From Thermotogota bacterium (GTDB taxonomy: Bacteria > Thermotogota > Thermotogae > Petrotogales > Petrotogaceae), in the NCBI GenBank assembly GCA_051748045.1, contig JBNJGY010000005.1:1-57083 (forward strand): a DNA stretch of 57,083 nucleotides, written 5' to 3'. Shown piece by piece: positions 1 through 12,582 of the stretch; within the stretch, counting starts at the first letter, position 1; every line of letters begins with the position of its first letter. Made by a program: the position numbers and the translations under genes. A model generated the notes under the pieces. That model was given only the letters and a program-made list of their open reading frames with translations. It was not told the origin of the DNA and searched no databases.

Positions 1-327
1 ATCAGTGGTGTAAATATTTATTTCATTATTAAGAGACCTTTCAGTTAACCCAAAGGAAGGTCTATCAAAAGCTATTACATGATAATTTTCACCAAGCTCT
101 TTTATAACTTTATCCCAAGTATAAGTGTGAGAACCAAAGCCATGTAATAAAATTAAAGATTGTTCATTATCTTTACCATACTCTTTATAATGCACTTCAA
201 AATCATCTATTGTCATAAATTTGCTATCTTCATAAGCTAATTCCCTGTGAGAATATACTCCATCAGTGTATACATACATAAAAGGAACTGTAAATAATAA
301 AATAAGAATTAAAATTTTTGTATCCAT
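1..327 (-). CDS. alpha/beta hydrolase with N-terminal membrane anchor (3' part outside the window)
   Basis: Hand translation gives MDTKILILILLFTVPF...VHYKEYG...LILLHGFGSHTYTW...VIAFDRPSFGLT. It has the HGF oxyanion motif and a DxPxFG motif, with an AGGATG RBS. Not in the ORF track. Confidence 0.85.
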   Translation of the reverse strand, partial: MDTKILILILLFTVPFMYVYTDGVYSHRELAYEDSKFMTIDDFEVHYKEYGKDNEQSLILLHGFGSHTYTWDKVIKELGENYHVIAFDRPSFGLTERSLNNEINIYTTD

Positions 328-549
328 ATATTCACATCCTTTTTGTCCTTAATACTATTTTACCATTTTTAACACTTTTTTATTAAATTATTAGTATTTT
401 TTTATTATTGCTCAAAATAACTCTTATTAACAAAATAAACATATGTCAACATGTGTTTGTCGAAAAATCTAAATTTATAGATTTAAAAAGCAAATTAAAG
501 ATGTAGGAAAATAATAAATAGCGCTCTTCACAAGATCGAATTATAGAAA

Positions 550-752
550 AAATAATGTAGAAATATAAAAAAGAAAAGTATTGGAGTTTTACTGAGAGAA
601 ACAGTTTTAAAATAAATTACTTTGTAATTTATTTTGTTGTTAGTTGGATGATGGAGGTTGTTGGTTTTTGTATTATTTTAGATGTTTAACAATGTTTTTT
701 ACTTCCAACTTCCAACCATAACCCTTCAACAGAAATTGTGAAACAATTTCTA
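550..752. repeat. dispersed intergenic element, copy 1
   Basis: 550-593 matches 15723-15766 at 43/44 nt. The terminal hairpin 727-752 matches 15953-15978. The core GTTTAACAATGTTTTT..TTCCAAC is shared with ~40684-40715. Confidence 0.8.
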
Positions 753-821
753 CTTCTTGCTCTACTTTGAGTTTTTATATTTCGTAATTAGTTTTTGCTT
801 AAAAATAAAATAACAATTTAA

Positions 822-841
822 AGCCCCCTTTAAAGGGGGCT
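822..841. terminator. intrinsic terminator after the lipoprotein gene
   Basis: AGCCCCCTTT/AAAGGGGGCT inverted repeat just past the stop at 856. Confidence 0.7.
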
Positions 842-855
842 ATTATAACATTTTT

Positions 856-2121
856 TTAATCATCATCTATCAGTCTAAATAAATAAACACCTGCTTCTCC
901 TGCTGCAACCATTAAATAATCAAACTTTTCTAACCCTACAGGATTTTTATTGAAATATTTTATATGATTTGGACTAATATTAGAACCTAAGAAATGCATA
1001 GTGAATTTACCAATTCTTTCAATATTTTCATCTTCTGTATATTTATAAATCATAAAACCAAAATCCGTAGTTGAATAATAATATGTTGTATATATAAACT
1101 CATCATTTGTTGATAAACCGTTAGCCAAAAAGTCTGAATCATTTGTTATTTCATTCATTGACATATCATCAAAGTCGATAAAAAGTGATTTAAAACCATT
1201 ATCAGCTAAACTAGCATGAATAACTGCTTGATTATTATTCATTAAGTCTTTTGTTGTTAAATCTAAAGTAGCTTTGTTATTTGCTAAAATAGATGTTAAA
1301 GGATTTATATTAGAATTAAAAGAGTTATCATATAGATATCCAAGTCCATTTGTTCCAGACAAACTAAACAATAAACTAGAAGCTTCTGTAGATATAGATT
1401 TTATATCTCTTAAATCATCTTCAGAATAAAAATATTGCTCTACAAAATCTTCGTCGTATTCATGTATTCCATCAACAGTTCCGTCAAACCCTGTTGAGAA
1501 AAAATATCTTGCTGGGTCAGTATTTGCTCTGGCTTCTATTCCACCCAATGAGGATATAGATGTAACATTTCTCCCGTCTAAAAACATTAAATTATCATTA
1601 ATGATAGAAGCTAAATTACCACTATTAGCTTTATTTTCTTTGAAATAAGAAAAAAAGGCTTTATTTTCTTCATCATACATTTGGCCACCAAAAAGAACTA
1701 AATCGTTTATTTTATCATAATAAACATAATTTATGTCTGCATTAGAAAAAATTACTGTTTTTTTCAGACTCGGTGTTGCTGATTCTATATTTATTATTTG
1801 TAATGCTCCTTTGTATTCATCTCCAGCATAATTATAACTAACAAAAGCATAATGCTGACTAAAATCAATATGATTTGCTTGAACCAATAACCCATCTACT
1901 TCTATAGGGTCTAATTTTGCGGTATATTCAACTTGATCTATAGGCCATGGTATTGCAACTATTTTGGTTTGTAAAATTTGAGATGTTGCATCTTCTTGAG
2001 TTAATACTAAGTTTCTGTAATCTTCTAACCTAATCAAATCTTTGTTTCCTTCCAAAGGAATTACACATGCTGTCATTAATAACAGTAAAATAACAACTAA
2101 CAGAACATAATATTTTCTCAT
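856..2121 (-). CDS. lipoprotein, probable beta-propeller (LVIVD-like repeats)
   Basis: Lipobox LMTAC. YAFVSY...GALQIINI and YLMVAAGEAGVYLF are blade-like motifs. Confidence 0.6.
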   Translation of the reverse strand: MRKYYVLLVVILLLLMTACVIPLEGNKDLIRLEDYRNLVLTQEDATSQILQTKIVAIPWPIDQVEYTAKLDPIEVDGLLVQANHIDFSQHYAFVSYNYAGDEYKGALQIINIESATPSLKKTVIFSNADINYVYYDKINDLVLFGGQMYDEENKAFFSYFKENKANSGNLASIINDNLMFLDGRNVTSISSLGGIEARANTDPARYFFSTGFDGTVDGIHEYDEDFVEQYFYSEDDLRDIKSISTEASSLLFSLSGTNGLGYLYDNSFNSNINPLTSILANNKATLDLTTKDLMNNNQAVIHASLADNGFKSLFIDFDDMSMNEITNDSDFLANGLSTNDEFIYTTYYYSTTDFGFMIYKYTEDENIERIGKFTMHFLGSNISPNHIKYFNKNPVGLEKFDYLMVAAGEAGVYLFRLIDDD

Positions 2122-2259
2122 GTTACCCCCTCCCTAAAAATACGTTATATAATGTTTTTATAACGTTTAATAAAATTATAACTCTTTTTAGAAAGGGATT
2201 ATCAGCATATTTGAATCTTAAATAAATTATCACTAAAATTTATTAATCAAATGATTATT

Positions 2260-2898
2260 TCATTTCCTTAATGATTTTGACAGTCTATTACCAAAAAACT
2301 GAATAAGCTGGGTTATTACTATTAGTATTAATACATCTATAATAAGAATATCCCATCTAAACCTTTGATATCCGTAATTAATTGCCATAGCACCAAGTCC
2401 TCCTGCACCAACTGCTCCAGCGATAGCTGTGAAGGTAATTAAGTTTATAAGCAAAAGTGTTATTCCGGAAGTGATATCAGCAAAAGATTCTGGTATCAAG
2501 ATTTTGAAAATAAATTGTTTTTTGTTCATCCCTAACACTGTTGCTGTGTCTAACAGCCCTTTTGATAAGTTGTTAAATGAATTTTCAGCCAACCTTCCCA
2601 TAAAAGGTATTGCTGCGATCGATAACGCAACTATCGCTGAATTAGGCCCAATAATAGTTCCTATTATTAATTTTGTTAGTGGAATTAATAATATTATTAA
2701 AATTATAAAAGGGATAGATCTAAATACATTCACAAAAAAATCAACAAAATAATATATTTTTTTATTTATATTTTTTTTTGATTTAGATAAAAAGAAAAGT
2801 AAAATCCCCAAAGGCAAACCAAAGAAAATAGCTATAGCACCTGATAGAAAAGTCATATACAAAGTTTCAAGTGTTGCTCTTATAAATTCATCTATCAT
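2260..2898 (-). CDS. metI: methionine ABC transporter permease
   Basis: ATLETLYM, RSIPFIIL and GAVGAGGLG..AINYGYQRF motifs; in an operon with metN and metQ. Confidence 0.93.
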   Translation of the reverse strand: MIDEFIRATLETLYMTFLSGAIAIFFGLPLGILLFFLSKSKKNINKKIYYFVDFFVNVFRSIPFIILIILLIPLTKLIIGTIIGPNSAIVALSIAAIPFMGRLAENSFNNLSKGLLDTATVLGMNKKQFIFKILIPESFADITSGITLLLINLITFTAIAGAVGAGGLGAMAINYGYQRFRWDILIIDVLILIVITQLIQFFGNRLSKSLRK

Positions 2899-3887
2899 TT
2901 TAATTCCTCCAGTCTATATACCCTTGATTCTAACTCATTTAAAAAACTTTCAATATCTTTATCTTCATATTCAATAATTATTATTAAAGTTCCATAAGGT
3001 TCTGTTTTTAAATGTTCAATTTTCCCATAAATATAATTCATTTTTATATTATATTTTTTTGCTATTCCATCTAAAATAGGTTCATGTGTACTACCTCCAT
3101 AAAAGGTTACTTTAATTAATTTTTGATTATCTTTATCACTTTTAGCTCTTGCTGCTTTCCAGTCAATATTTATTTCTTTATAAAACTCATCATATATTTC
3201 TTTTTCTTTTTCAATAAAAAGTTTATACACAGGGCCAAAAAAGCTAACTTTACCATCTTTTAAATAAACAACTTTATCACAAGATCTTTTTATTACATCC
3301 ATTTCATGGGTAACTATGATTGTTGATAGATTGTGCTTTTTATTCAATTTTAGTACTAATTTCAATATCTTGTCAGTTGTATTTGGGTCAAGAGCTGATG
3401 TAGGTTCGTCTAGTAAAAGAATATCTGGTGAATTCACTATTCCTCTTGCTATCGCTGTTCTTTGTTTTTCACCTCCAGAAAGAGCTGAAGGATAGTGGTT
3501 TAACCTATCAGACAGTCCAACTTCTTCAGCTATTTTTAAAACTTTTTCTTTTATATTTTTTTGCCTACCTATTTCTAAAGGAAGAGCTATGTTTTCATAA
3601 ACAGTCCTAGTATTTAATAAATTATAGTTTTGAAAAACAACGCTTATTTTTTTTCTCTCTATTCTCAAATCTCTTTCTTTTAAAGAAACCAGATTTTTCC
3701 CGTTTAACTGAATTTCTCCACTTGTAGGCTTTTCGAGCATTACCATAGATCTAAGTATTGATGTTTTACCAGCTCCTGAAAGTCCAATTATGCCCGTTAT
3801 TTCACCTTTATCTACTTTAAAATTAATATCTTTTAATATGTGTAGGTTTTTATTGTAAATCAAATTCAAATTTTTTATTTCTAGCAT
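2895..3887 (-). CDS. metN: methionine ABC transporter ATP-binding protein
   Basis: Walker A GLSGAGKT, LSGGEKQR, DEPTSALDP and a C-terminal NIL-like domain. Confidence 0.92.
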   Translation of the reverse strand: MLEIKNLNLIYNKNLHILKDINFKVDKGEITGIIGLSGAGKTSILRSMVMLEKPTSGEIQLNGKNLVSLKERDLRIERKKISVVFQNYNLLNTRTVYENIALPLEIGRQKNIKEKVLKIAEEVGLSDRLNHYPSALSGGEKQRTAIARGIVNSPDILLLDEPTSALDPNTTDKILKLVLKLNKKHNLSTIIVTHEMDVIKRSCDKVVYLKDGKVSFFGPVYKLFIEKEKEIYDEFYKEINIDWKAARAKSDKDNQKLIKVTFYGGSTHEPILDGIAKKYNIKMNYIYGKIEHLKTEPYGTLIIIIEYEDKDIESFLNELESRVYRLEELK

Positions 3888-3902
3888 ATTTATTCCTCCA
3901 TT

Positions 3903-4700
3903 TTAAAATACCGGAACCACAGCACCTTCATATTTATCATTTATATAAGCACTAACCTTTTCTGATTGTAGATAATCAATTAAAGAAATTATCAATTCAT
4001 TTTCTTTGTTTTCTTCTTTTACTGCAACTATATTTGCATATGGTGATTCGGAGCCTTCTATATACAAAGCATCCTCTAAAGGATTTAAATCTGCTTGAAT
4101 TGCATAATTAGTGTTTATAACCCCTCCGTTGACTGTGTCATCTTCTTTATATGTTCTAGGTAAATAAGCTGCATCTAATTCTACAAATTCTAAATTCAAA
4201 GGGTTTTTAACGATATTTTGTATTGTTGCTGATAACTTCTCCTCTTCTTCTAAAGTTATGAGTCCATTGTTTTCCAATAAAATTAACGCTCTTCCTTCAT
4301 TTGTTGTATCATTTGGTATAACAACAGTATCTCCTTTTCTGATTTCATCACTTTTAACATAAAAACCCATTGGTTCTACATGTATTTTTGCAACTGAAAT
4401 TAATCCTTCTAAACCTTGATTTTGGGAAAATGATTCTAAATAAGGTATATGCTGAAAGAAATTTGCATCAATAGACCCATCATCTAAAGCTAAATTTGGT
4501 TGTACATAATCATTAAACTCAACAATTTCTAATGTCGCACCTGTTTCTTTTTCAAAATCTTCTCTAATTAACTCCAATAATTCTGCATGTGGGACTGGTG
4601 TAGCTCCGACTTTTAAAACTTCTTCCCCAGCATTGAAATAATAAATAACCCCTATAACCACTAATACCACAACAACTAATAATCCTATAACTTTTTTCAC
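3903..4700 (-). CDS. metQ: MetQ/NlpA family substrate-binding protein
   Basis: LKVGATPVPHAE, DYVQPNLAL, DANFFQHIPYL and PNDTTNEGRAL motifs. Start moved to GTG 4700 behind GGAGG. Confidence 0.93.
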   Translation of the reverse strand: MKKVIGLLVVVVLVVIGVIYYFNAGEEVLKVGATPVPHAELLELIREDFEKETGATLEIVEFNDYVQPNLALDDGSIDANFFQHIPYLESFSQNQGLEGLISVAKIHVEPMGFYVKSDEIRKGDTVVIPNDTTNEGRALILLENNGLITLEEEEKLSATIQNIVKNPLNLEFVELDAAYLPRTYKEDDTVNGGVINTNYAIQADLNPLEDALYIEGSESPYANIVAVKEENKENELIISLIDYLQSEKVSAYINDKYEGAVVPVF

Positions 4701-4727
4701 AAAAAACACCTCCATAATTTTTTATAT

Positions 4728-4768
4728 AAAAAAAAGGACGGCTACTTTTAAAAAAGTAACCGTCCTTT
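4728..4768 (-). terminator. attenuator terminator in the metQNI leader
   Basis: Minus strand AAAGGACGGTTACTTT-TTTA-AAAGTAGCCGTCC followed by T8, lying between the promoter and metQ. Confidence 0.88.
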
Positions 4769-4785
4769 GATTATCCTAGATTATT

Positions 4786-4887
4786 TTAAATAGCAAAATA
4801 ACCATGGCTAAAGAATCGGTTACGCCATGGCATCATCATATTAAATAAATTTATATTTATATTTTTTGTTTTATTATTATTTTTCAT
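4786..4887 (-). CDS. putative methionine leader peptide (33 aa, MKNNNKTKNININLFNMMMPWRNRFFSHGYFAI)
   Basis: RBS AAGGGAGAG; ATG-ATG-ATG at 4839-4831; overlaps alternative hairpins and precedes a terminator upstream of metQ. Confidence 0.82.
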   Translation of the reverse strand: MKNNNKTKNININLFNMMMPWRNRFFSHGYFAI

Positions 4888-4915
4888 AAAGGTCTCTCCC
4901 TTTGAATTTTTTATT

Positions 4916-4944
4916 ATTATAGCAAAATAAAAATATATTGTCAA
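4916..4944 (-). promoter_or_regulatory. sigma70-type promoter of the met leader and metQNI
   Basis: Perfect TTGACA-17 nt-TATAAT with extended -10 TG. Confidence 0.85.
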
Positions 4945-4995
4945 ATAAAAGCAAATATTTAATTATATTAAACATTAATCCTATAACATACAAGA

Positions 4996-5025
4996 AAACC
5001 CAACCATTATTTAATGGCTGGGTTT
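4996..5025 (-). terminator. terminator after the DOMON gene
   Basis: AAACCCAACCATTA/TAATGGCTGGGTTT hairpin right after the stop. Confidence 0.6.
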
Positions 5026-5029
5026 GTTT

Positions 5030-5572
5030 TTAAAATTGAATTTCTATTGTATCTCTTTGAGAGTGCCTTCTCATAAAGCTATCAGAACTATTATGGTATG
5101 CAATTATTGTTTTTATTTTTGCATCAGGTTTTAAAGTATTATATCTTGATTCTTCATTTAATGGAATTTTTATTTCTGCTAATGAATATTCTTCTGTTCT
5201 TTCTCCATAAAAGTTTTCTATATATTTTTCTTCAATTTTCCTGTGACTTATCATTGAATTACCATAATGTTCTTCTAAAACAACTTCGTCATTATTTAGC
5301 CCTATTATTATTATCTTAGCATCTTTCATTCTATTACTAGGTTCAAACCCTATTGATATCCAACCTGATACAGGTGCTTTTATAACCATATACAAATCAT
5401 TATCTTCTGAAAATTCCCAATATATATCCATTCCTAATTCTGTTTCCATGTAATTACTATAAATTAAATCTTCAACCATCTTACTTTCAAACTGCTTAAC
5501 ATGTCCATCTGCGAAAATAAATGTTGATAATATAACAACGAATAAAATAACAAACAATCTCTTCATTTTCAT
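5030..5572 (-). CDS. secreted DOMON domain protein (possible heme binding)
   Basis: Signal peptide; GWISIGF...RMKDAKIII motif and C-terminal RRH, giving candidate Met/His heme ligands. Confidence 0.75.
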   Translation of the reverse strand: MKMKRLFVILFVVILSTFIFADGHVKQFESKMVEDLIYSNYMETELGMDIYWEFSEDNDLYMVIKAPVSGWISIGFEPSNRMKDAKIIIIGLNNDEVVLEEHYGNSMISHRKIEEKYIENFYGERTEEYSLAEIKIPLNEESRYNTLKPDAKIKTIIAYHNSSDSFMRRHSQRDTIEIQF

Positions 5573-5590
5573 TTGTATTACCTCCTTAGG

Positions 5591-5989
5591 TTATCCAAAC
5601 AACCATGGGTTTGTTAAATGAATAATTAAAAACACAAAAATTAAAATAGCAATATACCTGTGAAAAACCAACCACTTTTTTAATAGTTTCATTTTACCTA
5701 AAATAAATACAACTAAATTTAAAAATATAGCTAAAAATAAAATTAATCCAGTATGCCAATAAAAAATTGTTCCCAATATGAGATAAGCATGAATAGTTGC
5801 GATTATAAGGATTATGACCCCATTAATTCTATGGTATCTAGATATTTTTTTAATTACTTGAGCAAACTTAATTTTAGATTCTTTTGTTTTGAAATTATGT
5901 TTTTTAAAGTAAAATTTGACAAAATAATAACTAAGGCTAATACTCACTAAAACTACATTAATCCAACCTAATACAGCATATAAATCCAA
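5591..5989 (-). CDS. small 4-TM membrane protein with paired histidines (cytochrome b-like)
   Basis: YHRING..IHAY and FHRYIA..IHL give two His pairs on transmembrane helices. Confidence 0.6.
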   Translation of the reverse strand: MDLYAVLGWINVVLVSISLSYYFVKFYFKKHNFKTKESKIKFAQVIKKISRYHRINGVIILIIATIHAYLILGTIFYWHTGLILFLAIFLNLVVFILGKMKLLKKWLVFHRYIAILIFVFLIIHLTNPWLFG

Positions 5990-6086
5990 TTTTATCTCCC
6001 CTTATATTAATATTATTATAATAAATTATATCATATTTTTACTTATTATTAGGTTATTATATTTTATAAATAGTGACTATAGTAAT

Positions 6087-6115
6087 TTGACTATTTGATT
6101 CTTTAGTGTTATAGT
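6087..6115 (+). promoter_or_regulatory. promoter of the ABC exporter
   Basis: TTGACT-17-TATAGT with TG extension. Confidence 0.55.
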
Positions 6116-6164
6116 TAATTAGTACATTAAATATTATAAACAATTTTTTTGGAGGGATGCATAA

Positions 6165-7085
6165 ATGTCAGAAATTTTAAAGGTGAATGGGCTAGAAAAA
6201 AGTTATGGAAAAACAAAGATATTAAAAGGAATAGATTTGAGTATCAAAAAAGGTGATGTATACGGTTTTCTTGGGCCTAATGGCGCGGGAAAAACAACTA
6301 CTATAAGATCTATACTTGGGTTGATAAAAAAAGATAAAGGAGAAGTTTATCTTAACGGTTATGATGCTGATAAATATTTTAAAAAAGCTATAGACAAAGT
6401 TGGTAGTGTAGTTGAAACCCCAAGATTTTATGAACATTTATCTGGTTATAAAAATCTTAAACTAATGGCTAATTTATATAACAATGTTCCAAAAAAAAGA
6501 ATTTACGAAGTATTAGAATTAACAGGAATGCTTAACAGAATGAATGACAAAGTCTCAAAATACTCTCTGGGTATGAAACAAAGGCTTGGAATAGCAAGGG
6601 CCCTTTTAAATAATCCCGAATTAATTCTATTAGATGAGCCAACTAATGGTTTAGACCCAAGTGGTATGAAAGAAGTCAGAGAATTAATAATAAATCTTGC
6701 GAAAGAAGAAAACATCACTTTCATGATTTCATCACATTTATTACATGAAGTAGAAATGATGTGTAATAGAATAGGAATTATTAAAAATGGTGAAAAAATT
6801 ATAGAAGGAGATGTTGATGAGCTTGTAAATGAATCAAAAGAAAATATTGAAATTCATACAAAACATCCTGAAAAAGTTTTAGAACTAATCAAAAAACACG
6901 AAAACTACAGTATCAAAGAACACAAAGGAAATATAATAATCTTAGAATCTGAAAAAGATTTATCAAAAAAAATTAATACTTTATTGGTTGAAAACAATAT
7001 TATTGCAGATTTCATAATTCCAAAGAAAAATGACCTAGAAAAAATATTTATAAACTTAACAGGTGGAGGGGATCAAATTGCTTAA
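6165..7085 (+). CDS. ABC transporter ATP-binding protein (BcrA/lantibiotic-immunity type)
   Basis: GPNGAGKTT, YSLGMKQRLG and DEPTNGLDP motifs. Confidence 0.9.
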   Translation: MSEILKVNGLEKSYGKTKILKGIDLSIKKGDVYGFLGPNGAGKTTTIRSILGLIKKDKGEVYLNGYDADKYFKKAIDKVGSVVETPRFYEHLSGYKNLKLMANLYNNVPKKRIYEVLELTGMLNRMNDKVSKYSLGMKQRLGIARALLNNPELILLDEPTNGLDPSGMKEVRELIINLAKEENITFMISSHLLHEVEMMCNRIGIIKNGEKIIEGDVDELVNESKENIEIHTKHPEKVLELIKKHENYSIKEHKGNIIILESEKDLSKKINTLLVENNIIADFIIPKKNDLEKIFINLTGGGDQIA

Positions 7086-7857
7086 AGTGACAAAAAATGA
7101 ACTTTATAAGTTTTTTACAAGCAAAAAATTAATTTTTTTATCTTTAATAATAGTTGCTATAAATATTTTTGCTGCATATGTAGTAAACGACAGAATGAAC
7201 ATTGAACCAAACCCTATGATGATGAACGCACAATCTTTTCCTATAATGATGTATATGCAAGTATTTTCTGGTTTTTTCCCTATGTTTTTTATTCTATTGT
7301 TTGCTGGTTTAATATCAGATGAAGTTAGAGATGGTACTTTAAAATTAACCCTAGTAAGACCTATAAAAAGATTTGAGTTTATAAATGCAAAAATAATTAC
7401 TTCTTTTATAGCAATTTTATATATAAATCTCTTAGTAATGTTTTCAGCATATTTAGCTGGTATGTTCTTCTGGGGATGGGGAGATAATTTTTCTTTTCAA
7501 AGTCAATTCCTTGTTGATTATGGACCTTTTCTTTCTACTCTAGTTTATTTTTTGCTTAACACAGTAGGATATTCTATTTTTGCATTAATCATAATTTTAT
7601 TTTCAAATATTTTAAAAAATTCAGGCTTTGTTTTTGGTGGAGCTATGGGTATTTGGATTGGAATGATGCTTGTTACTCAATTAAAACCTTCAATAAAAGA
7701 ATTCATTCCTGTTTATTATTTTGATATGGGGAATTTTATTATGAATGGCCCTAATTCATTTGATTTTGTTAAAGGTGTACCAGTTTTATTAGCATATTTC
7801 ATTGGTTTTTATATAATAAATTCTATTATCCTTCAAAGAAAAGAAATCACAACATAA
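7078..7857 (+). CDS. ABC-2 family permease
   Basis: About 6 TM helices; E.RDGTLK..L.RP motif. Start set to TTG 7078 behind GGAGGGG. Confidence 0.85.
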   Translation: MLKVTKNELYKFFTSKKLIFLSLIIVAINIFAAYVVNDRMNIEPNPMMMNAQSFPIMMYMQVFSGFFPMFFILLFAGLISDEVRDGTLKLTLVRPIKRFEFINAKIITSFIAILYINLLVMFSAYLAGMFFWGWGDNFSFQSQFLVDYGPFLSTLVYFLLNTVGYSIFALIIILFSNILKNSGFVFGGAMGIWIGMMLVTQLKPSIKEFIPVYYFDMGNFIMNGPNSFDFVKGVPVLLAYFIGFYIINSIILQRKEITT

Positions 7858-7874
7858 TTTAACAATAACTTAAT

Positions 7875-7905
7875 TTGACCTGGAGTTTACTCCAGGTTTT
7901 ATAAT
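7875..7905 (+). promoter_or_regulatory. MerR-type promoter and operator (19-bp spacer)
   Basis: TTGACC-19 nt-TATAAT with the perfect dyad ACCTGGAGT-TT-ACTCCAGGT (7878-7897) across the spacer. Confidence 0.8.
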
Positions 7906-8019
7906 TTATGTATACTAACTAAGGAGTGTGATTTGTGTGAATGTTTATACTGATATTTTAAAAATGGTGTTTTTAAGAAGTGATGACAAAAAATAAAATA
8001 AATCAGGAGGATATTCACA

Positions 8020-9246
8020 TTGAATATAGAATATAAAGAAATAACAGAAATAAAGGAATTAAAAAAATTAATCGAGGAAGTCATTAAACCAGTTTTCGAA
8101 GAAGAAGGCGAAGTAGATATACTAACAAATGATGTTTGGACAAAGTCTAATAAAAAAGATAAAAATATTGTTTTAGCTGCAATTGATACAGATAAAAATA
8201 AATACATTGGAACTGTATCTTTGATAGACACTCCAATGAAATATGATGGCATCGAAATTAAAACATGTGAGCTTGGAGTTGTTGGAACTTTAGAAGAATA
8301 CAGGGGAAATAAAATTAACGATACTTTGACCAAGTTGTTTTTAGAAAAAGCTGAAGAATTAGAATACGATATGATTATTATAGAAGGGATTCCTTACTTC
8401 TACAGAAGGTATGGTTTTAATTATTCTGTTCCTATGTCTTCTGAATCATTCAAAATAAATAACCTTGAATTTACAAACAAAGAAAAATTAACTATGAGAA
8501 AAGCTGATAAAAAAGATCTTAACTTTATAAAAACTGAATTCGATAAATCCAACGAAAAGGTTGAAATATATTTAAACAAGGAAAAAGAAATAATAGACAA
8601 CCACATGAACGATTATGAAGAAAGATTTTTGGCAAAAGATTATAGAATAATAGAAAAAGAAGGTAAAAAAATAGGTTATTTAGCTTTAACTAAGTTCAAA
8701 GATATCATGCAAATATGTGAAATTTCAGATGATTTAAACTTTGATGTTTATGAAAGCGTTTTGTCTATTCTTGAAAAAGAATTAGATAATTATAAAACTA
8801 AAGATGAAATAAGATTGGATATTCCAGAAACTAATAAATTAATAGCTTTTTCAAGATCAAAAGGTTCTAAAAGAATTGGTGACTACCAATGGCAGATAAA
8901 AATACTAAATCTTTATAGATTTATGGAAAATATTAAACCAGTTTTAGAAAAAAGAATTAAAAACTCTATTTATAATAACGAAAACTTTAAATTTAAATAC
9001 CATAATTACAGAGAAATGATAGAGTTTAATATTAAAAATTCGAAGATAAATATAAAGAAATTAAAGTTCGAACCAGCATATGACGTAAACATTCCCCCTC
9101 AGGCTGAAGTAAAATACCTTTTAGGGAATAATACATATGAAGAACTTAGAAACATTTTACCAGATACAATAATACAGAAAAAATTTCTTGGATTGATGAA
9201 CACTATGTTCCCTAAAACAACAAGACATTTTTATCATAATTATTAA
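8020..9246 (+). CDS. GNAT family acetyltransferase (Eis-like length)
   Basis: VGTLEEYRGNKI acetyl-CoA motif; GIPYFYRRYGF. Confidence 0.8.
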   Translation: MNIEYKEITEIKELKKLIEEVIKPVFEEEGEVDILTNDVWTKSNKKDKNIVLAAIDTDKNKYIGTVSLIDTPMKYDGIEIKTCELGVVGTLEEYRGNKINDTLTKLFLEKAEELEYDMIIIEGIPYFYRRYGFNYSVPMSSESFKINNLEFTNKEKLTMRKADKKDLNFIKTEFDKSNEKVEIYLNKEKEIIDNHMNDYEERFLAKDYRIIEKEGKKIGYLALTKFKDIMQICEISDDLNFDVYESVLSILEKELDNYKTKDEIRLDIPETNKLIAFSRSKGSKRIGDYQWQIKILNLYRFMENIKPVLEKRIKNSIYNNENFKFKYHNYREMIEFNIKNSKINIKKLKFEPAYDVNIPPQAEVKYLLGNNTYEELRNILPDTIIQKKFLGLMNTMFPKTTRHFYHNY

Positions 9247-9253
9247 ATAAATC

Positions 9254-9275
9254 GCCCCTATTTATAGGGGCTTTT
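9254..9275 (+). terminator. intrinsic terminator
   Basis: GCCCCTA-TTTA-TAGGGGC followed by TTTT. Confidence 0.65.
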
Positions 9276-9306
9276 ATAATGTTATAATTAAATGAGGTGA
9301 AAAAAT

Positions 9307-9909
9307 ATGAATAATGATATTATTAAAAAAGCAGAAAACCTTCTTATAAATGCTGAACTAGAAGGAAATCATGATCTAGAACATATCTTGAGAGTTGTGC
9401 ATAACGCCAAGCTTATTGCAGATACAGTTGAATGTGATAAAGAAGTCGTCGTACTATCTGCATTATTACACGATATAGGAAGATCAGAAAAAATATTAAA
9501 TGAATATAATATAAAGAAAAATCATCATGCAGATACAGGAGCTAAAATTGCTTATGAATTTTTAAAGGATTTAGGATATGATAAAGCAAAAGAAGTTAGC
9601 TATGCTGTTTCTGTCCATAATTTTTCTAAAGGTATTATTCCTGAAACAATAGAAGCAAAAATATTACAAGACGCTGATAGACTTGATGCGATAGGATATG
9701 TTGGAGTTATGAGGGTTTTCACAGATGAAAGAGGAGATATTAATGATAAAATTCAACATTTTTATGATAAACTACTTAAATTAAAAAATGGTATGCATAC
9801 TGAAAAAGGGAAACAATTAGCAGAAAAAAAACATGAAAGAATAGAAAAATATATAAAAGGTCTACACGAAGAAATGGATCAAATGCATAAAGTTGACATA
9901 ACTGAATAA
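9307..9909 (+). CDS. HD domain phosphohydrolase (YedJ-like)
   Basis: HDLEHILRV, ALLHDIG, QDADRLDAIG and HFYDKLLKL motifs. Confidence 0.88.
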   Translation: MNNDIIKKAENLLINAELEGNHDLEHILRVVHNAKLIADTVECDKEVVVLSALLHDIGRSEKILNEYNIKKNHHADTGAKIAYEFLKDLGYDKAKEVSYAVSVHNFSKGIIPETIEAKILQDADRLDAIGYVGVMRVFTDERGDINDKIQHFYDKLLKLKNGMHTEKGKQLAEKKHERIEKYIKGLHEEMDQMHKVDITE

Positions 9910-9915
9910 TCCCAT

Positions 9916-9950
9916 AAAAAAGTCACCAATATTATATTGGTGACTTTTTT
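9916..9950. terminator. bidirectional terminator
   Basis: AAAAAAGTCACCAATA/TATTGGTGACTTTTTT between convergent genes. Confidence 0.85.
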
Positions 9951-9967
9951 ATTTTATAATCAAACAG

Positions 9968-10531
9968 TTATATTAAAAAGGGTATTAATTTTTTTGTTTC
10001 TTTTTGATATTGTTTATATTCATCTCCAAAATATTTTAAAAGTAATTTTTCTTCAACATTTATTCTATACATAAGCCCTAAAAATGGAAAAATAATTCCA
10101 AAAGAAGTTGTTATAGGATTATAAAAAGCAATAGATATTCCCACAAAAGCCAAAAATATCCCAAAATAAGCTGGATGTCTTATAACACTAAACAAACCAG
10201 TTTTTAACAATTTTTGTTCTTTATGAACACCAATATTAACAGAAAAAGCATTCCCCAACCTTCGGATTGTATCTACTCTTATAAAAACACCTATTAAAAT
10301 AATTATTATTCCAATATATTGGATAAAATTAAATGGTTCGAAAAATTGATCTATAGCTTCAGTATCTAATACATATCCACCAAACATACCAAATAAAAAG
10401 AGTGAAGTCATTATATATTTTGATCTTTTTTCCTCATGTTTTTTAGTATTTTCTTTATTGAAAAAGAAATGAACAAAAATTTCTACACCAAACCAAAATA
10501 AAACACCTATTAAAAATACTACTTGACCCAT
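9968..10531 (-). CDS. isoprenylcysteine carboxyl methyltransferase (ICMT/STE14) family membrane protein
   Basis: TGLFSVIRHPAYFG and RINVEEKLL..FGDEY..Y motifs. Confidence 0.88.
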   Translation of the reverse strand: MGQVVFLIGVLFWFGVEIFVHFFFNKENTKKHEEKRSKYIMTSLFLFGMFGGYVLDTEAIDQFFEPFNFIQYIGIIIILIGVFIRVDTIRRLGNAFSVNIGVHKEQKLLKTGLFSVIRHPAYFGIFLAFVGISIAFYNPITTSFGIIFPFLGLMYRINVEEKLLLKYFGDEYKQYQKETKKLIPFLI

Positions 10532-10605
10532 CTACATCCCCTCCTTCAACTTATTTAATATTATATCATAAAACCAATTCATAAATTAACTTTTAAAGGT
10601 ATAAT

Positions 10606-10637
10606 AAAAAAATGCAGTGGAAAAAACCACTGCATTT
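10606..10637 (-). terminator. terminator of the hut operon
   Basis: AATGCAGTGG/CCACTGCATT stem with a T-run on the minus strand. Confidence 0.75.
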
Positions 10638-10706
10638 CAATCGACTAACATTACAATTATATCATGGAAATCGAAATTTGTAAATAAATTTTTTGTTAAA
10701 GAATTT

Positions 10707-11324
10707 TTATAATTCTACAATATCTAATATTTCTTTTTCTTTTTGGATTAAAGCATTTTCAATTTCAGTTACTTTTGCATTCATTTTTGATACATAATCT
10801 TCGTCTTTTATGCTAGAAAGATTAATCTTTACATTGTACAAAGCCCCTAAACCAGCTGTTCTAGCTAACATTGCTGACACAGCACCATCAGTAATTGCAT
10901 TTTTATTTCCTTTCTCTACAACAATTTTTGACAAATCCATTATTTTTAATGATTTTTCTGCAACACTCAAAGGTACTTCTGAAGCATGTTTTGACCCATT
11001 TTGAATAGCTTCTTTTCTTTTTACTTTTTCTTCATCAGTAGATTTTGGCATTTTAAATGCTTTCATAACTCTGTTAAAAGCTTCTGAATCTCTTGTGATA
11101 TCACTTATTAAATCTTCTTGTAAGATAATAGCATCTTCTTGAACTTTTTTCATATCTTCTTCTGATTCAGCATATTTTTTCTTTCCTACAGTTAAAGAAG
11201 CAACCATATTTGAAAGAGCAGCTGCTAAAGATCCTGCTAGAGCAGAAACGCTTCCCCCACCAGGAACAGGTTCTTTTGAACCAACTTGTTTTACAAAATC
11301 ATCTAATTTCATTTTTTCAAACAT
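10707..11324 (-). CDS. fchA: formiminotetrahydrofolate cyclodeaminase
   Basis: PVPGGGSVSAL and GNKNAITD motifs; hut context. Confidence 0.88.
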   Translation of the reverse strand: MFEKMKLDDFVKQVGSKEPVPGGGSVSALAGSLAAALSNMVASLTVGKKKYAESEEDMKKVQEDAIILQEDLISDITRDSEAFNRVMKAFKMPKSTDEEKVKRKEAIQNGSKHASEVPLSVAEKSLKIMDLSKIVVEKGNKNAITDGAVSAMLARTAGLGALYNVKINLSSIKDEDYVSKMNAKVTEIENALIQKEKEILDIVEL

Positions 11325-12582
11325 TTATATAATCTCTCCTTTCATAAGCAAGTTTTCCTTTTTTAAAAACTTTTTCAATACTATTTACAGCAATATGATA
11401 AGTTAAAAATTCATAAGAAGGTACATTCAATATATTTATATCTGCTTGTTTCCCTTTTTCTAGAGATCCTATCTTCTCGGATCTATCTATAGCAGCTGCT
11501 CCATTAAGAGTCAAAGCTGTTAATATTTCTTCTGGCATCATATTCATATATAAGGCTGCTAAAGAAATTATCAAAGGAATAGATTCTGTATAACAACTAC
11601 CAGGATTTAAATCAGTAGCTAAGGCTACTGCACAACCAGTGTCAATTAATTTTCTCGCATCAGCAAATTTTTCTTTTAAACTAAATGCTGTTCCTGGTAA
11701 TAAAGTTGCTACTGTACTGCTCTCAGCCATCAATTTTATGTGTTCTTCTGTTATTTGAAGTAAATGATCAGCTGATACAGCTTCTAAATCTACTGCTAAT
11801 TTAGACCCACCAAGAGGAACTATTTCATCAGCATGCATTTTAATCTTAAAACCTTTATTTTTTGCAGCAGTTAAAAGTTTTCTTGATTGTTCGATATCAA
11901 AAACCTTTTCTTCACAAAAAACATCACAAAATTCTGCTAATTCTTCTTCTTTTACAATAGGAAGAACTTCTTGTATCATAAAATCTATAAATTCATCTTC
12001 TCTGCCAACATAATCTTTTGGAACAGCATGGGCTCCCAAAAATGTTTTTGATATTTCAACTGGGGTTTTACCATCCAAATTTTTCATAGCTCTTAACTGT
12101 TTTAATTCTGTTTTTTTGTCTAAACCATATCCGCTTTTACCTTCAACAGTAGTTACTCCAAAGCTTAGCATGGATAAAAGTCTTTTTCCCCCAGCTTCTG
12201 TTAGTTCTTCTAAACTGGCTTTTTTTGTGGAGTTTACAGAACTAATTATTCCTCCTCCAGCTTCCATTATTTCCATATAAGATTTACCTCTAAGTCTCAT
12301 TCCAAATTCATTTTCTCTATAACCCCCAAAAATGAAGTGGGTATGAGAATCAACAAAACCAGGAACAGCTGTTTTGCCGGTCATATCAATTACTTGGTAA
12401 TCTTTTTCATTGTAAATTTTTTTCAATTCTTCTGTCTTTCCAACAAATTCTATCTTCTCATCTTCTATGACGATTGATGCATCAGAAATGACAAGAATTT
12501 TTTGCATATCTTTTCCTTTTTTTGCTCTAAAACCTATTGGTGTAGCTATTTGTTGAAAATTTTTTAAAATCTTCTTATTCAT
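11317..12582 (-). CDS. hutI: imidazolonepropionase
   Basis: PGFVDSHTH, EGKSGYGL, HADE and ATDLNPGS motifs. Confidence 0.95.
   Translation of the reverse strand: MNKKILKNFQQIATPIGFRAKKGKDMQKILVISDASIVIEDEKIEFVGKTEELKKIYNEKDYQVIDMTGKTAVPGFVDSHTHFIFGGYRENEFGMRLRGKSYMEIMEAGGGIISSVNSTKKASLEELTEAGGKRLLSMLSFGVTTVEGKSGYGLDKKTELKQLRAMKNLDGKTPVEISKTFLGAHAVPKDYVGREDEFIDFMIQEVLPIVKEEELAEFCDVFCEEKVFDIEQSRKLLTAAKNKGFKIKMHADEIVPLGGSKLAVDLEAVSADHLLQITEEHIKLMAESSTVATLLPGTAFSLKEKFADARKLIDTGCAVALATDLNPGSCYTESIPLIISLAALYMNMMPEEILTALTLNGAAAIDRSEKIGSLEKGKQADINILNVPSYEFLTYHIAVNSIEKVFKKGKLAYERRDYINV

Follow-up and report, generated by a model that had tools for sequence, protein, structure and literature searches.

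Leader-peptide attenuation is a textbook mechanism, and the specificities named for it in passages of the literature are Trp, His, Phe, Thr, Leu and Ile/Val, with Cys named tentatively. Passages of PMC3766115 give His, Leu, Thr and Trp, along with Ile/Val and Phe; Met is absent from them. Elsewhere, methionine control is credited to S-adenosylmethionine (SAM) riboswitches, Met T-boxes and protein factors. Here, we describe an element upstream of the methionine importer operon metQNI of a Thermotogota bacterium (Petrotogaceae), located on the minus strand of a stretch of 57,083 nt (assembly GCA_051748045.1, contig JBNJGY010000005.1; the whole of this stretch is called the window hereafter). The element combines a short open reading frame (ORF) carrying three tandem Met codons with an intrinsic terminator and mutually exclusive pairings. 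This arrangement is conserved across the phylum, with covariation, and is linked to genes of Met uptake and homocysteine synthesis. It is very probably a classical ribosome-mediated leader-peptide transcription attenuator with Met regulatory codons, which would control metQNI. The same design appears to serve Met uptake and homocysteine synthesis phylum-wide, and we infer that it responds to Met-tRNA. A Met-codon attenuator would add a specificity to those named above, and would let a cell read methionine itself, via tRNA charging, rather than SAM. The sequence-only reading of this DNA knew of no characterised methionine equivalent, and we also found no methionine leader-peptide attenuator in the literature searched; subscription journals and supplements lay outside that search, and an earlier listing is possible.

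The enterobacterial attenuators (trpL, hisL, pheL, thrL, leuL, ilvL) resemble the metQ leader in their promoter-proximal ORF, tandem cognate codons, alternative 1:2, 2:3 and 3:4 hairpins, intrinsic terminator and association with genes supplying the cognate amino acid. The multi-hairpin his leader also resembles it in the extra hairpin described below. In contrast, the metQ leader has Met codons, occurs in Thermotogota rather than Proteobacteria, stands before an ABC (ATP-binding cassette) importer, shows neither sequence nor covariance-model similarity to these systems, and has its antiterminator strand in the loop of hairpin 1 rather than paired within it. Cys-codon leaders of Actinobacteria are described in passages of PMC1262725 as lacking conserved terminator or antiterminator hairpins, with Rho dependence suggested; these passages give no RNA structure for Met operons in that phylum. 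Polycysteine upstream ORFs of mycobacteria appear in passages of bioRxiv 10.1101/834739. The actinobacterial leaders share with ours a short upstream ORF, a run of codons for a sulfur amino acid, matching metabolism genes and a host outside the Proteobacteria, but the Met leader has Met codons and a full intrinsic-terminator switch.

Two other classes of methionine sensors are close in function. The SAM-I (S-box) riboswitch occupies the same position at the same operon in three genera (g6, g7 and g10; families and genus-level lineages are referred to by f and g codes) and also works by a terminator/antiterminator choice. Unlike the leader, which would sense Met-tRNA charging via the ribosome, it binds SAM directly through a conserved 108-position aptamer. 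The Met T-box, as presented in passages on the met leader of S. aureus (PMC3771891), resembles the proposed leader in answering to tRNA-Met charging by antitermination of Met genes, but there uncharged tRNA is bound directly by an RNA of about 200 nt and no translation is involved. An evolutionary parallel comes from Bacilli, where passages of PMC2965389 report His leader peptides upstream of hisS/hisZ and describe sensor switching; these passages mention no Met leader. As in our case, a classical leader replaces a T-box or riboswitch at syntenic genes outside the Proteobacteria; the amino acid and the phylum are others. As far as can be read in silico, the metQ leader has the features of an attenuator (ORF, Met codons, terminator, antiterminator and 1:2 hairpin) and it matches no Rfam leader model. 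What appears new is the Met specificity, the occurrence in Thermotogota, the association with a transporter and an archaeal-type homocysteine pathway, and the exchange with SAM-I. The parts of the leader, in the order of transcription, are as follows.

4944-4916, minus strand: sigma-70-type promoter, TTGACA at 4944-4939, 17-nt spacer, TATAAT at 4921-4916
4900-4894, minus strand: Shine-Dalgarno (SD) sequence of the leader, GGGAGAG, by sequence reading
4887-4786, minus strand: leader peptide ORF, 33 codons and TAA (4788-4786), ATG at 4887, product MKNNNKTKNININLFNMMMPWRNRFFSHGYFAI
4839-4831, minus strand: Met run ATG ATG ATG, the proposed stall site
4831-4801, minus strand: P1, anti-antiterminator hairpin, GCCAUGGC (4831-4824) with GCCAUGGU (4808-4801), in the minimum free energy (MFE) structure
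4823-4810, minus strand: antiterminator 5' strand GUAACCGAUUCUUU, whose partner is the terminator 5' arm (4768-4756)
4803-4779, minus strand: inner hairpin, 4803-4794 with 4788-4779, in the fold of the transcript without the terminator 3' arm
4768-4728, minus strand: intrinsic terminator, 5' arm 4768-4753, loop 4752-4749, 3' arm 4748-4733, then the T run

The promoter, the ribosome-binding site, the ORF, the three ATG codons, the hairpin following them and the terminator just before the metQ SD all lie where the sequence-only reading had placed them. The promoter is the sole 12/12 match to the consensus within positions 1-9000 of the window. It has an extended -10 box (TGcTATAAT, with TG at 4924-4923), is found in identical form in a congener (L010), and predicts a transcription start near 4909. 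P1 pairs CCATGGC (4830-4824) with GCCATGG (4808-4802) and gains G4831-U4801, giving 8 bp in the MFE structure around a loop of 15 nt that contains the antiterminator strand. This strand begins 6 nt past the Met run, and the complementarity claimed for it is there: GTAACCGATTCTTT (4823-4810) and AAAGGACGGTTAC (4768-4756) form 13 bp with one bulged A and one G-U pair (ΔG -15.0 kcal/mol). The terminator stem has 16 pairs, 6 of them GC, with a core hairpin of -18.7 kcal/mol and a run of 8 T's (4735-4728), of which the first three (4735-4733) also close the 3' arm. Within 9 kb there are 8 terminator-like sites (2.2 in shuffled sequences), and this one is the strongest; it lies 23 nt from the leader stop codon.

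The 226-nt leader folds far better than its shuffles (z = -5.8, 200 shuffles). In the transcript lacking the terminator 3' arm, 4823-4810 pairs with 4768-4756 and encloses the inner hairpin, which overlaps the 3' strand of P1 and holds the leader stop codon in its own 3' strand. The involvement of this inner hairpin in the switch is one of two additions to the earlier reading, the other being that the element also stands ahead of Met-biosynthesis operons (see below). As a separate observation, the MFE structure of the whole leader pairs its SD and start region (4885-4905) over a long range with the SD and start region of metQ (4698-4716, minus strand), which may be a chance complementarity of purine- and U-rich segments.

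We then compared the upstream regions of metQ across the phylum. Searching 151 Thermotogota genomes with the MetQ protein, we found 45 matches, spread over 39 genomes. Setting aside the own f1 genome, metQ was found in 18 of 25 genomes of f1, 16 of 25 of f2, one of two of f4, three of 18 of f6 and none of the other families. We looked at 42 upstream regions; the three partial matches, two in G088 and one being the second piece of the split gene of G089, were left out. A Met-run leader followed by a terminator precedes metQ in 32 of them, representing 11 genus-level lineages. Hence, the Met run anticipated in orthologous leaders is kept, and these leaders support the three-structure Met attenuator that had been proposed, its answer to Met-tRNA staying conjectural. 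Each of the 32 has an SD and, 10-16 codons ahead of the run, an in-frame start; 18-51 nt separate the run from the stop and 85-114 nt separate it from the end of the U tract. The antiterminator strand begins 2-9 nt past the run, and the P1 hairpin starts at the run. When the 28 unique metQ leaders were aligned with MAFFT, the first and third ATG were invariant, and otherwise only one G and two T's of the tail were. Peptides vary freely among genera outside the Met run. The run itself is mostly MMM or MMMM, with MCM in g3, MVM in the second metQ copy of g15 and MNMIM in g18, and the interrupted forms (MVM, MCM, MNMIM) hold the codon phase. Its conservation in relatives shows the leader to be more than a product of chance. 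By comparison, none of 71 metQ upstream regions from outside the Thermotogota, a set heavily biased to Selenomonadaceae, carries such a run; in two of them ATGATGATG at -12 is the gene's own start. The names of public contigs with metQ loci (Thermotogota, Kosmotogales and Petrotogaceae metagenome-assembled genomes) confirm the phylum; these loci duplicate the surveyed genomes and are not independent of them.

The remaining metQ regions are informative in their own way. Nine of the 42 have a SAM-I riboswitch (91-98 bits) upstream of metQ: all six g6 genomes, both g7 genomes and the single g10 genome (L016-L021, L023, L026 and L013), three genera of the same family. In the last region, that of G009, the contig ends 163 nt before the gene and neither sensor is found there. 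The Met leader and the SAM-I riboswitch thus appear interchangeable at the same loci, which would make metQ a clean case of a ribosome-based sensor and a riboswitch replacing one another in evolution at one gene. Some loci have further peculiarities. The metQ of L130 (G089:C9:29688-30472) is split by an in-frame TAA, its upstream Met leader being intact. Arrays of tandem repeats of about 100 nt lie between the SAM-I terminator and metQ in L013, L019 and L020, with palindromes of the GGGCGGCAGCCC or GGGCACAGCCC type in their units, and L013 additionally carries a HEARO RNA (RF02033, 140 bits).

Leaders of this kind are not confined to metQ. A pattern search (ATGATGATG, then 68-98 nt, then TTTTTT) over the 151 genomes, with 302 matches beyond those listed, and a targeted look upstream of aspartokinases gave at least 17 further Met-run leaders in 17 genomes of families f6, f7, f9 and f11 (L131-L136, L170-L173 and L175-L181). 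Downstream of these lies an aspartokinase (AA_kinase and ACT domains), followed by aspartate-semialdehyde dehydrogenase (Asd) or by the homocysteine-biosynthesis enzyme HcyBio (PF01837), the latter with a ferredoxin domain in one case. All 17 have an SD and a start. Their runs include MMM, MMMCM, MMxMMM (f9) and MMNTMMMRMM (f11), reaching five Met in six codons in f9 and seven in ten in f11. In total, Met-run leaders occur in at least 45 of the 151 genomes, in 17 genera and seven of 11 families, and, among the leaders listed, all precede genes for taking up methionine or making homocysteine. The pattern points to a Met regulon that spans the phylum and takes in the sulfide-dependent pathway to homocysteine. 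The leader could then serve as a regulon marker tying metQNI to the aspartokinase-Asd and aspartokinase-HcyBio operons, and help to annotate methionine genes in poorly studied genomes.

The association with aspartokinase is partial. The leader stands directly upstream of 13 of 45 HcyBio-type aspartokinases, and those of f8, g22, g25 and g43 have no Met-run ORF directly upstream. In f8 (L149-L165 and L187-L189), the aspartokinase and HcyBio genes sit inside an operon headed by a MetH-like B12-binding ORF. Five leaderless operons (three of f8, namely L187-L189, one of g43 and one of g22) showed neither a Met-run ORF nor an Rfam match in the 4.6 kb upstream. SAM-I precedes the aspartokinase in two f1 genomes of two other genera (L185, L186). 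When the G075 aspartokinase served as query for related loci, its own contig and one distant match were all that came up. One f9 locus (L174, in G110, g36) has no MMxMMM leader of the kind its congeners have upstream of aspartokinase; about 150 nt of a different GC-rich, structured sequence, closing with a terminator, stand in its place and match no Rfam family.

No known RNA family accounts for the leader. Scanning positions 1-12000 of the window with Rfam at E ≤ 10, we found that the leader is matched only by L20_leader (E 0.44), on the terminator itself, and that the amino-acid leader families (Trp_leader, His_leader, Leu_leader, Thr_leader and Phe_leader) have no match within 4690-4950. 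SAM-I (RF00162) and T-box (RF00230) have no match in the window or in the whole genome it belongs to, so that neither model explains the region, as the sequence-only reading had supposed. A weak Phe_leader match elsewhere (752-849, plus strand; 27 bits against a gathering score of 55, E 0.48) falls on a GC-rich hairpin, AAAGCCCCCUUUAAAGGGGGCU, and is probably just a terminator.

The genome of the organism (G000; 2.41 Mb, 28.2% GC, 99.65% complete) yielded one such leader. BLAST with the 261-nt leader revealed no second copy in it, only AT-rich chance matches. A crude genome scan for Met runs within short ORFs ahead of a terminator turned up 43 candidates, of which 41 distinct ones were listed; among those listed, a triple ATG run is present in the metQ leader only. 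The genome shows no domain matches for HcyBio, MetE (PF01717) or MetH (PF02965, PF02574), and its Cys_Met_Meta_PP matches are weak and partial. Without the HcyBio, MetE and MetH domains, uptake via MetQNI is probably the sole supply of methionine, and the gene content makes the organism a probable methionine auxotroph. For a cell depending on this importer, sensing Met-tRNA charging at metQNI makes sense, and the element would probably gate its only methionine supply.

We analysed the alternative structures in the 45 unique leaders by taking the terminator 5' arm plus 5 nt and searching the 45-64 nt that separate arm and run for its best duplex partner. Every leader has an intrinsic terminator, and in every leader this partner starts 0-9 nt past the run. 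The antiterminator duplexes range from -11.7 to -25.5 kcal/mol, against -9.8 to -22.2 kcal/mol for the terminator cores. In 43 of the 45, the MFE structure of the pre-terminator RNA places the antiterminator strand inside a hairpin whose start lies at the run or within it. The stop codon precedes the terminator core stem by 17-37 nt. A ribosome at the stop thus keeps clear of the terminator stem, which is compatible with an attenuator, and we infer that it sterically excludes the antiterminator.

The antiterminator sequences differ by lineage: GUAACCG.AUUCUUU in the window, GGUCUUCUC in g9, GCAACCGA in g3, GCCCC in g16, ACGCCC in g15, AACCCCG in the second g15 copy, GAUCCCCUUUU in g22, and CCGACCGUCC, CCGACCGCCGA or CCGACCGUUGG in f9. 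Helix sequences diverge between lineages and complementarity is kept. As a control, we swapped strands among 18 lineage representatives. Own pairs reach -17.7 kcal/mol on average, against -10.1 kcal/mol (standard deviation 3.5) for swapped ones, and the own arm is best in 12 of the 18, the exceptions being mostly related lineages with similar GC-rich terminators (the terminator arm of the g15b representative was mis-cut).

Covariation could be followed in nine alignable f9 leaders. There, the antiterminator is 97% paired and both sides change in 4 of 11 pairs, a covariation score reached by none of 500 shuffles; controls in which the strand was slid are 9-48% paired. The terminator is 95% paired on the same alignment. 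Column 75 covaries both with its antiterminator partner (column 33) and with its terminator partner (column 103), as predicted for two mutually exclusive helices with a common strand. RNAalifold on 10 close leaders recovered the terminator and the inner hairpin, and the analogous hairpin of the relatives shows covariation. On a different point, a Cys codon (UGC) lies directly after or within the Met run in eight of 18 lineages (MMMC, MVMC, MIMC, MCM, MMMCM). This may reflect joint Met/Cys sensing, or it may be just the start of the P1 stem (GUGC...GCAC).

The mechanism that these parts would allow is as follows. The strong promoter would start the transcript and a ribosome would load on the 33-codon leader. 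With ample charged elongator Met-tRNA, this ribosome would cross the MMM codons and the antiterminator strand and halt at the UAA, the terminator (4768-4733 and the U tract) would form, and transcription would end before metQ. With scarce Met-tRNA, it would stall with a Met codon in its A site. The leading edge of a ribosome lies about 13 nt beyond the first A-site base. The footprint would then cover the 5' strand of P1 (4831-4824), P1 could not close, and the inner hairpin (4803-4779) would take the other strand of P1. The freed 4823-4810 would capture the terminator 5' arm at 4768-4756, and RNA polymerase would enter metQNI. Translation of the ORF, stalling at its Met codons and Met-responsive read-through would all be part of such a switch, and it would extend classical attenuation to the Thermotogota, which implies coupled transcription and translation there.

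Several results weigh against this mechanism or limit what supports it. The P1 of the window encloses the antiterminator strand and pairs with none of its 14 nt, and in the truncated transcript the antiterminator state (-21.2 kcal/mol) is more stable than the P1 state (-14.3 kcal/mol). As a consequence, an untranslated leader might read through rather than terminate. These energies hold for 37 °C. The sequence-only reading had a ribosome on the Met codons freeing the antiterminator. In equilibrium folds with the Met run and the next 11 nt blocked (20-23 nt), the terminator stayed in the MFE structure of the 14 correctly cut full leaders; the antiterminator formed instead in the window segment (L009), which had been cut inside the terminator loop. 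Since equilibrium folds retain the terminator under blocking, the switch must be kinetic, as in known attenuators; the blocked-footprint fold is unusable as a test of a kinetic switch and we discarded it. Methionine starvation would also lower the charging of the initiator tRNA, and this could blunt the response.

Other points against the attenuator concern the comparative evidence. The own genus is represented by two genomes with nearly identical leaders, and support is drawn from other genera, whose leaders are not alignable by sequence; related genomes are also non-independent samples. RNAalifold on a MAFFT alignment of 21 leaders (f2, f4, f6) gave no pairs because this alignment was out of register. 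The antiterminator duplex stands out weakly from mononucleotide shuffles (median z of -1.6), and none of 300 shuffles reached it in only three of 28 leaders, several rows having a terminator arm cut to 5 nt. The sole RNA evidence on the leader is one metatranscriptome contig of 151 nt (4780-4930), which begins upstream of the -10 box. It is silent on where the transcript starts and ends, and speaks neither for nor against attenuation. Contigs from two metatranscriptome runs of one study also contain near-identical pieces in metQ and in the gene upstream of the leader (scan of 3700-5400); gaps in this coverage carry no information.

Three other explanations have to be weighed against the Met-codon attenuator. 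The leader could be a translation-independent RNA switch, a new Met or SAM riboswitch or a target of a TRAP-like protein, in which the ORF is incidental. The antiterminator and terminator alternatives do exist irrespective of translation, a ligand-sensing SAM-I holds the same locus in sister genera, and translation of the leader ORF is a prediction from sequence. However, between genera only two ATG, one G and two T's of the tail are invariant, so that no conserved ligand pocket is visible, and the 45-64 nt from run to terminator hold just simple hairpins. The SD and in-frame start found in 49 of 49 leaders, with the stop 17-37 nt before the terminator stem, fit poorly with an incidental ORF. 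Interrupted runs (MVM, MCM, MNMIM, MMxMMM) hold one frame, which argues for a constraint on codons rather than on repeat spacing, and three triplets are far below the number in TRAP-type sites. We therefore give this explanation a very small chance. The chance is smaller still that the peptide itself is the sensor, as in TnaC or SpeFL, stalling the ribosome when free methionine or SAM joins it in the exit tunnel. Ligand-dependent examples exist (TnaC, in passages of PMC8429421), and W, C, Y, P or R often follow the run, but these residues coincide with the P1 stem, so that RNA pairing accounts for them. The sequence outside the Met run is not conserved among genera, and stalling at abundant methionine would switch on uptake or homocysteine synthesis when they are least needed.

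The least probable explanation is that there is no conditional control at all: a strong promoter with a fortuitous ORF behind it, and a terminator that leaks (or a small separate transcript), would simply hold metQNI at a constant low level. An AT-rich genome (28.2% GC) does hold many chance ORFs and promoter-like sites, and the 65 promoter-like sites found are close to the 62.6 in shuffles. Yet the whole architecture is conserved, with covariation, over 45 unique leaders and seven of 11 families; the leaders listed are linked only to Met supply genes; a SAM-I riboswitch takes the place of the leader at orthologous loci; and the 71 metQ genes from outside the phylum all lack it.

Returning to the Met-codon attenuator, its distribution invites a broader and more tentative reading. 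The leader could be an ancestral, phylum-wide master control of Met supply over metQNI and the archaeal-type aspartokinase-Asd-HcyBio genes, reading the charging of elongator Met-tRNA rather than SAM, repeatedly swapped with SAM-I, and with many of its copies acting as joint Met/Cys sensors. We regard this as possible but rather unlikely. If true, it would imply tight coupling of transcription and translation in a deep-branching, largely thermophilic phylum.

The genes around the leader, one per line, are the metQNI operon downstream and a DOMON-domain gene upstream.

3903-4713, minus strand: metQ, SD GGAGGTG at 4713-4707, GTG start at 4700 (PF03180, E 1.9e-80)
2895-3887, minus strand: metN, ABC ATPase with a C-terminal NIL domain (PF00005, PF09383)
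2260-2898, minus strand: metI, ABC permease (PF00528)
5572-5030, minus strand: DOMON-domain ORF (Pfam), the upstream gene
5025-4996, minus strand: intrinsic terminator of the DOMON-domain ORF, 13 pairs and a T-rich tail

The product of metQ is an NlpA/Lipoprotein_9 methionine-binding lipoprotein by Pfam, and its GTG start is backed by an ATG at the equivalent place in the congener L010. The terminator of the DOMON-domain gene makes the leader a separate transcription unit. Downstream of metI lies a 421-aa ORF (856-2121, minus strand) with no Pfam match, and a small ORF of 36 aa (2123-2233) stands between the two.

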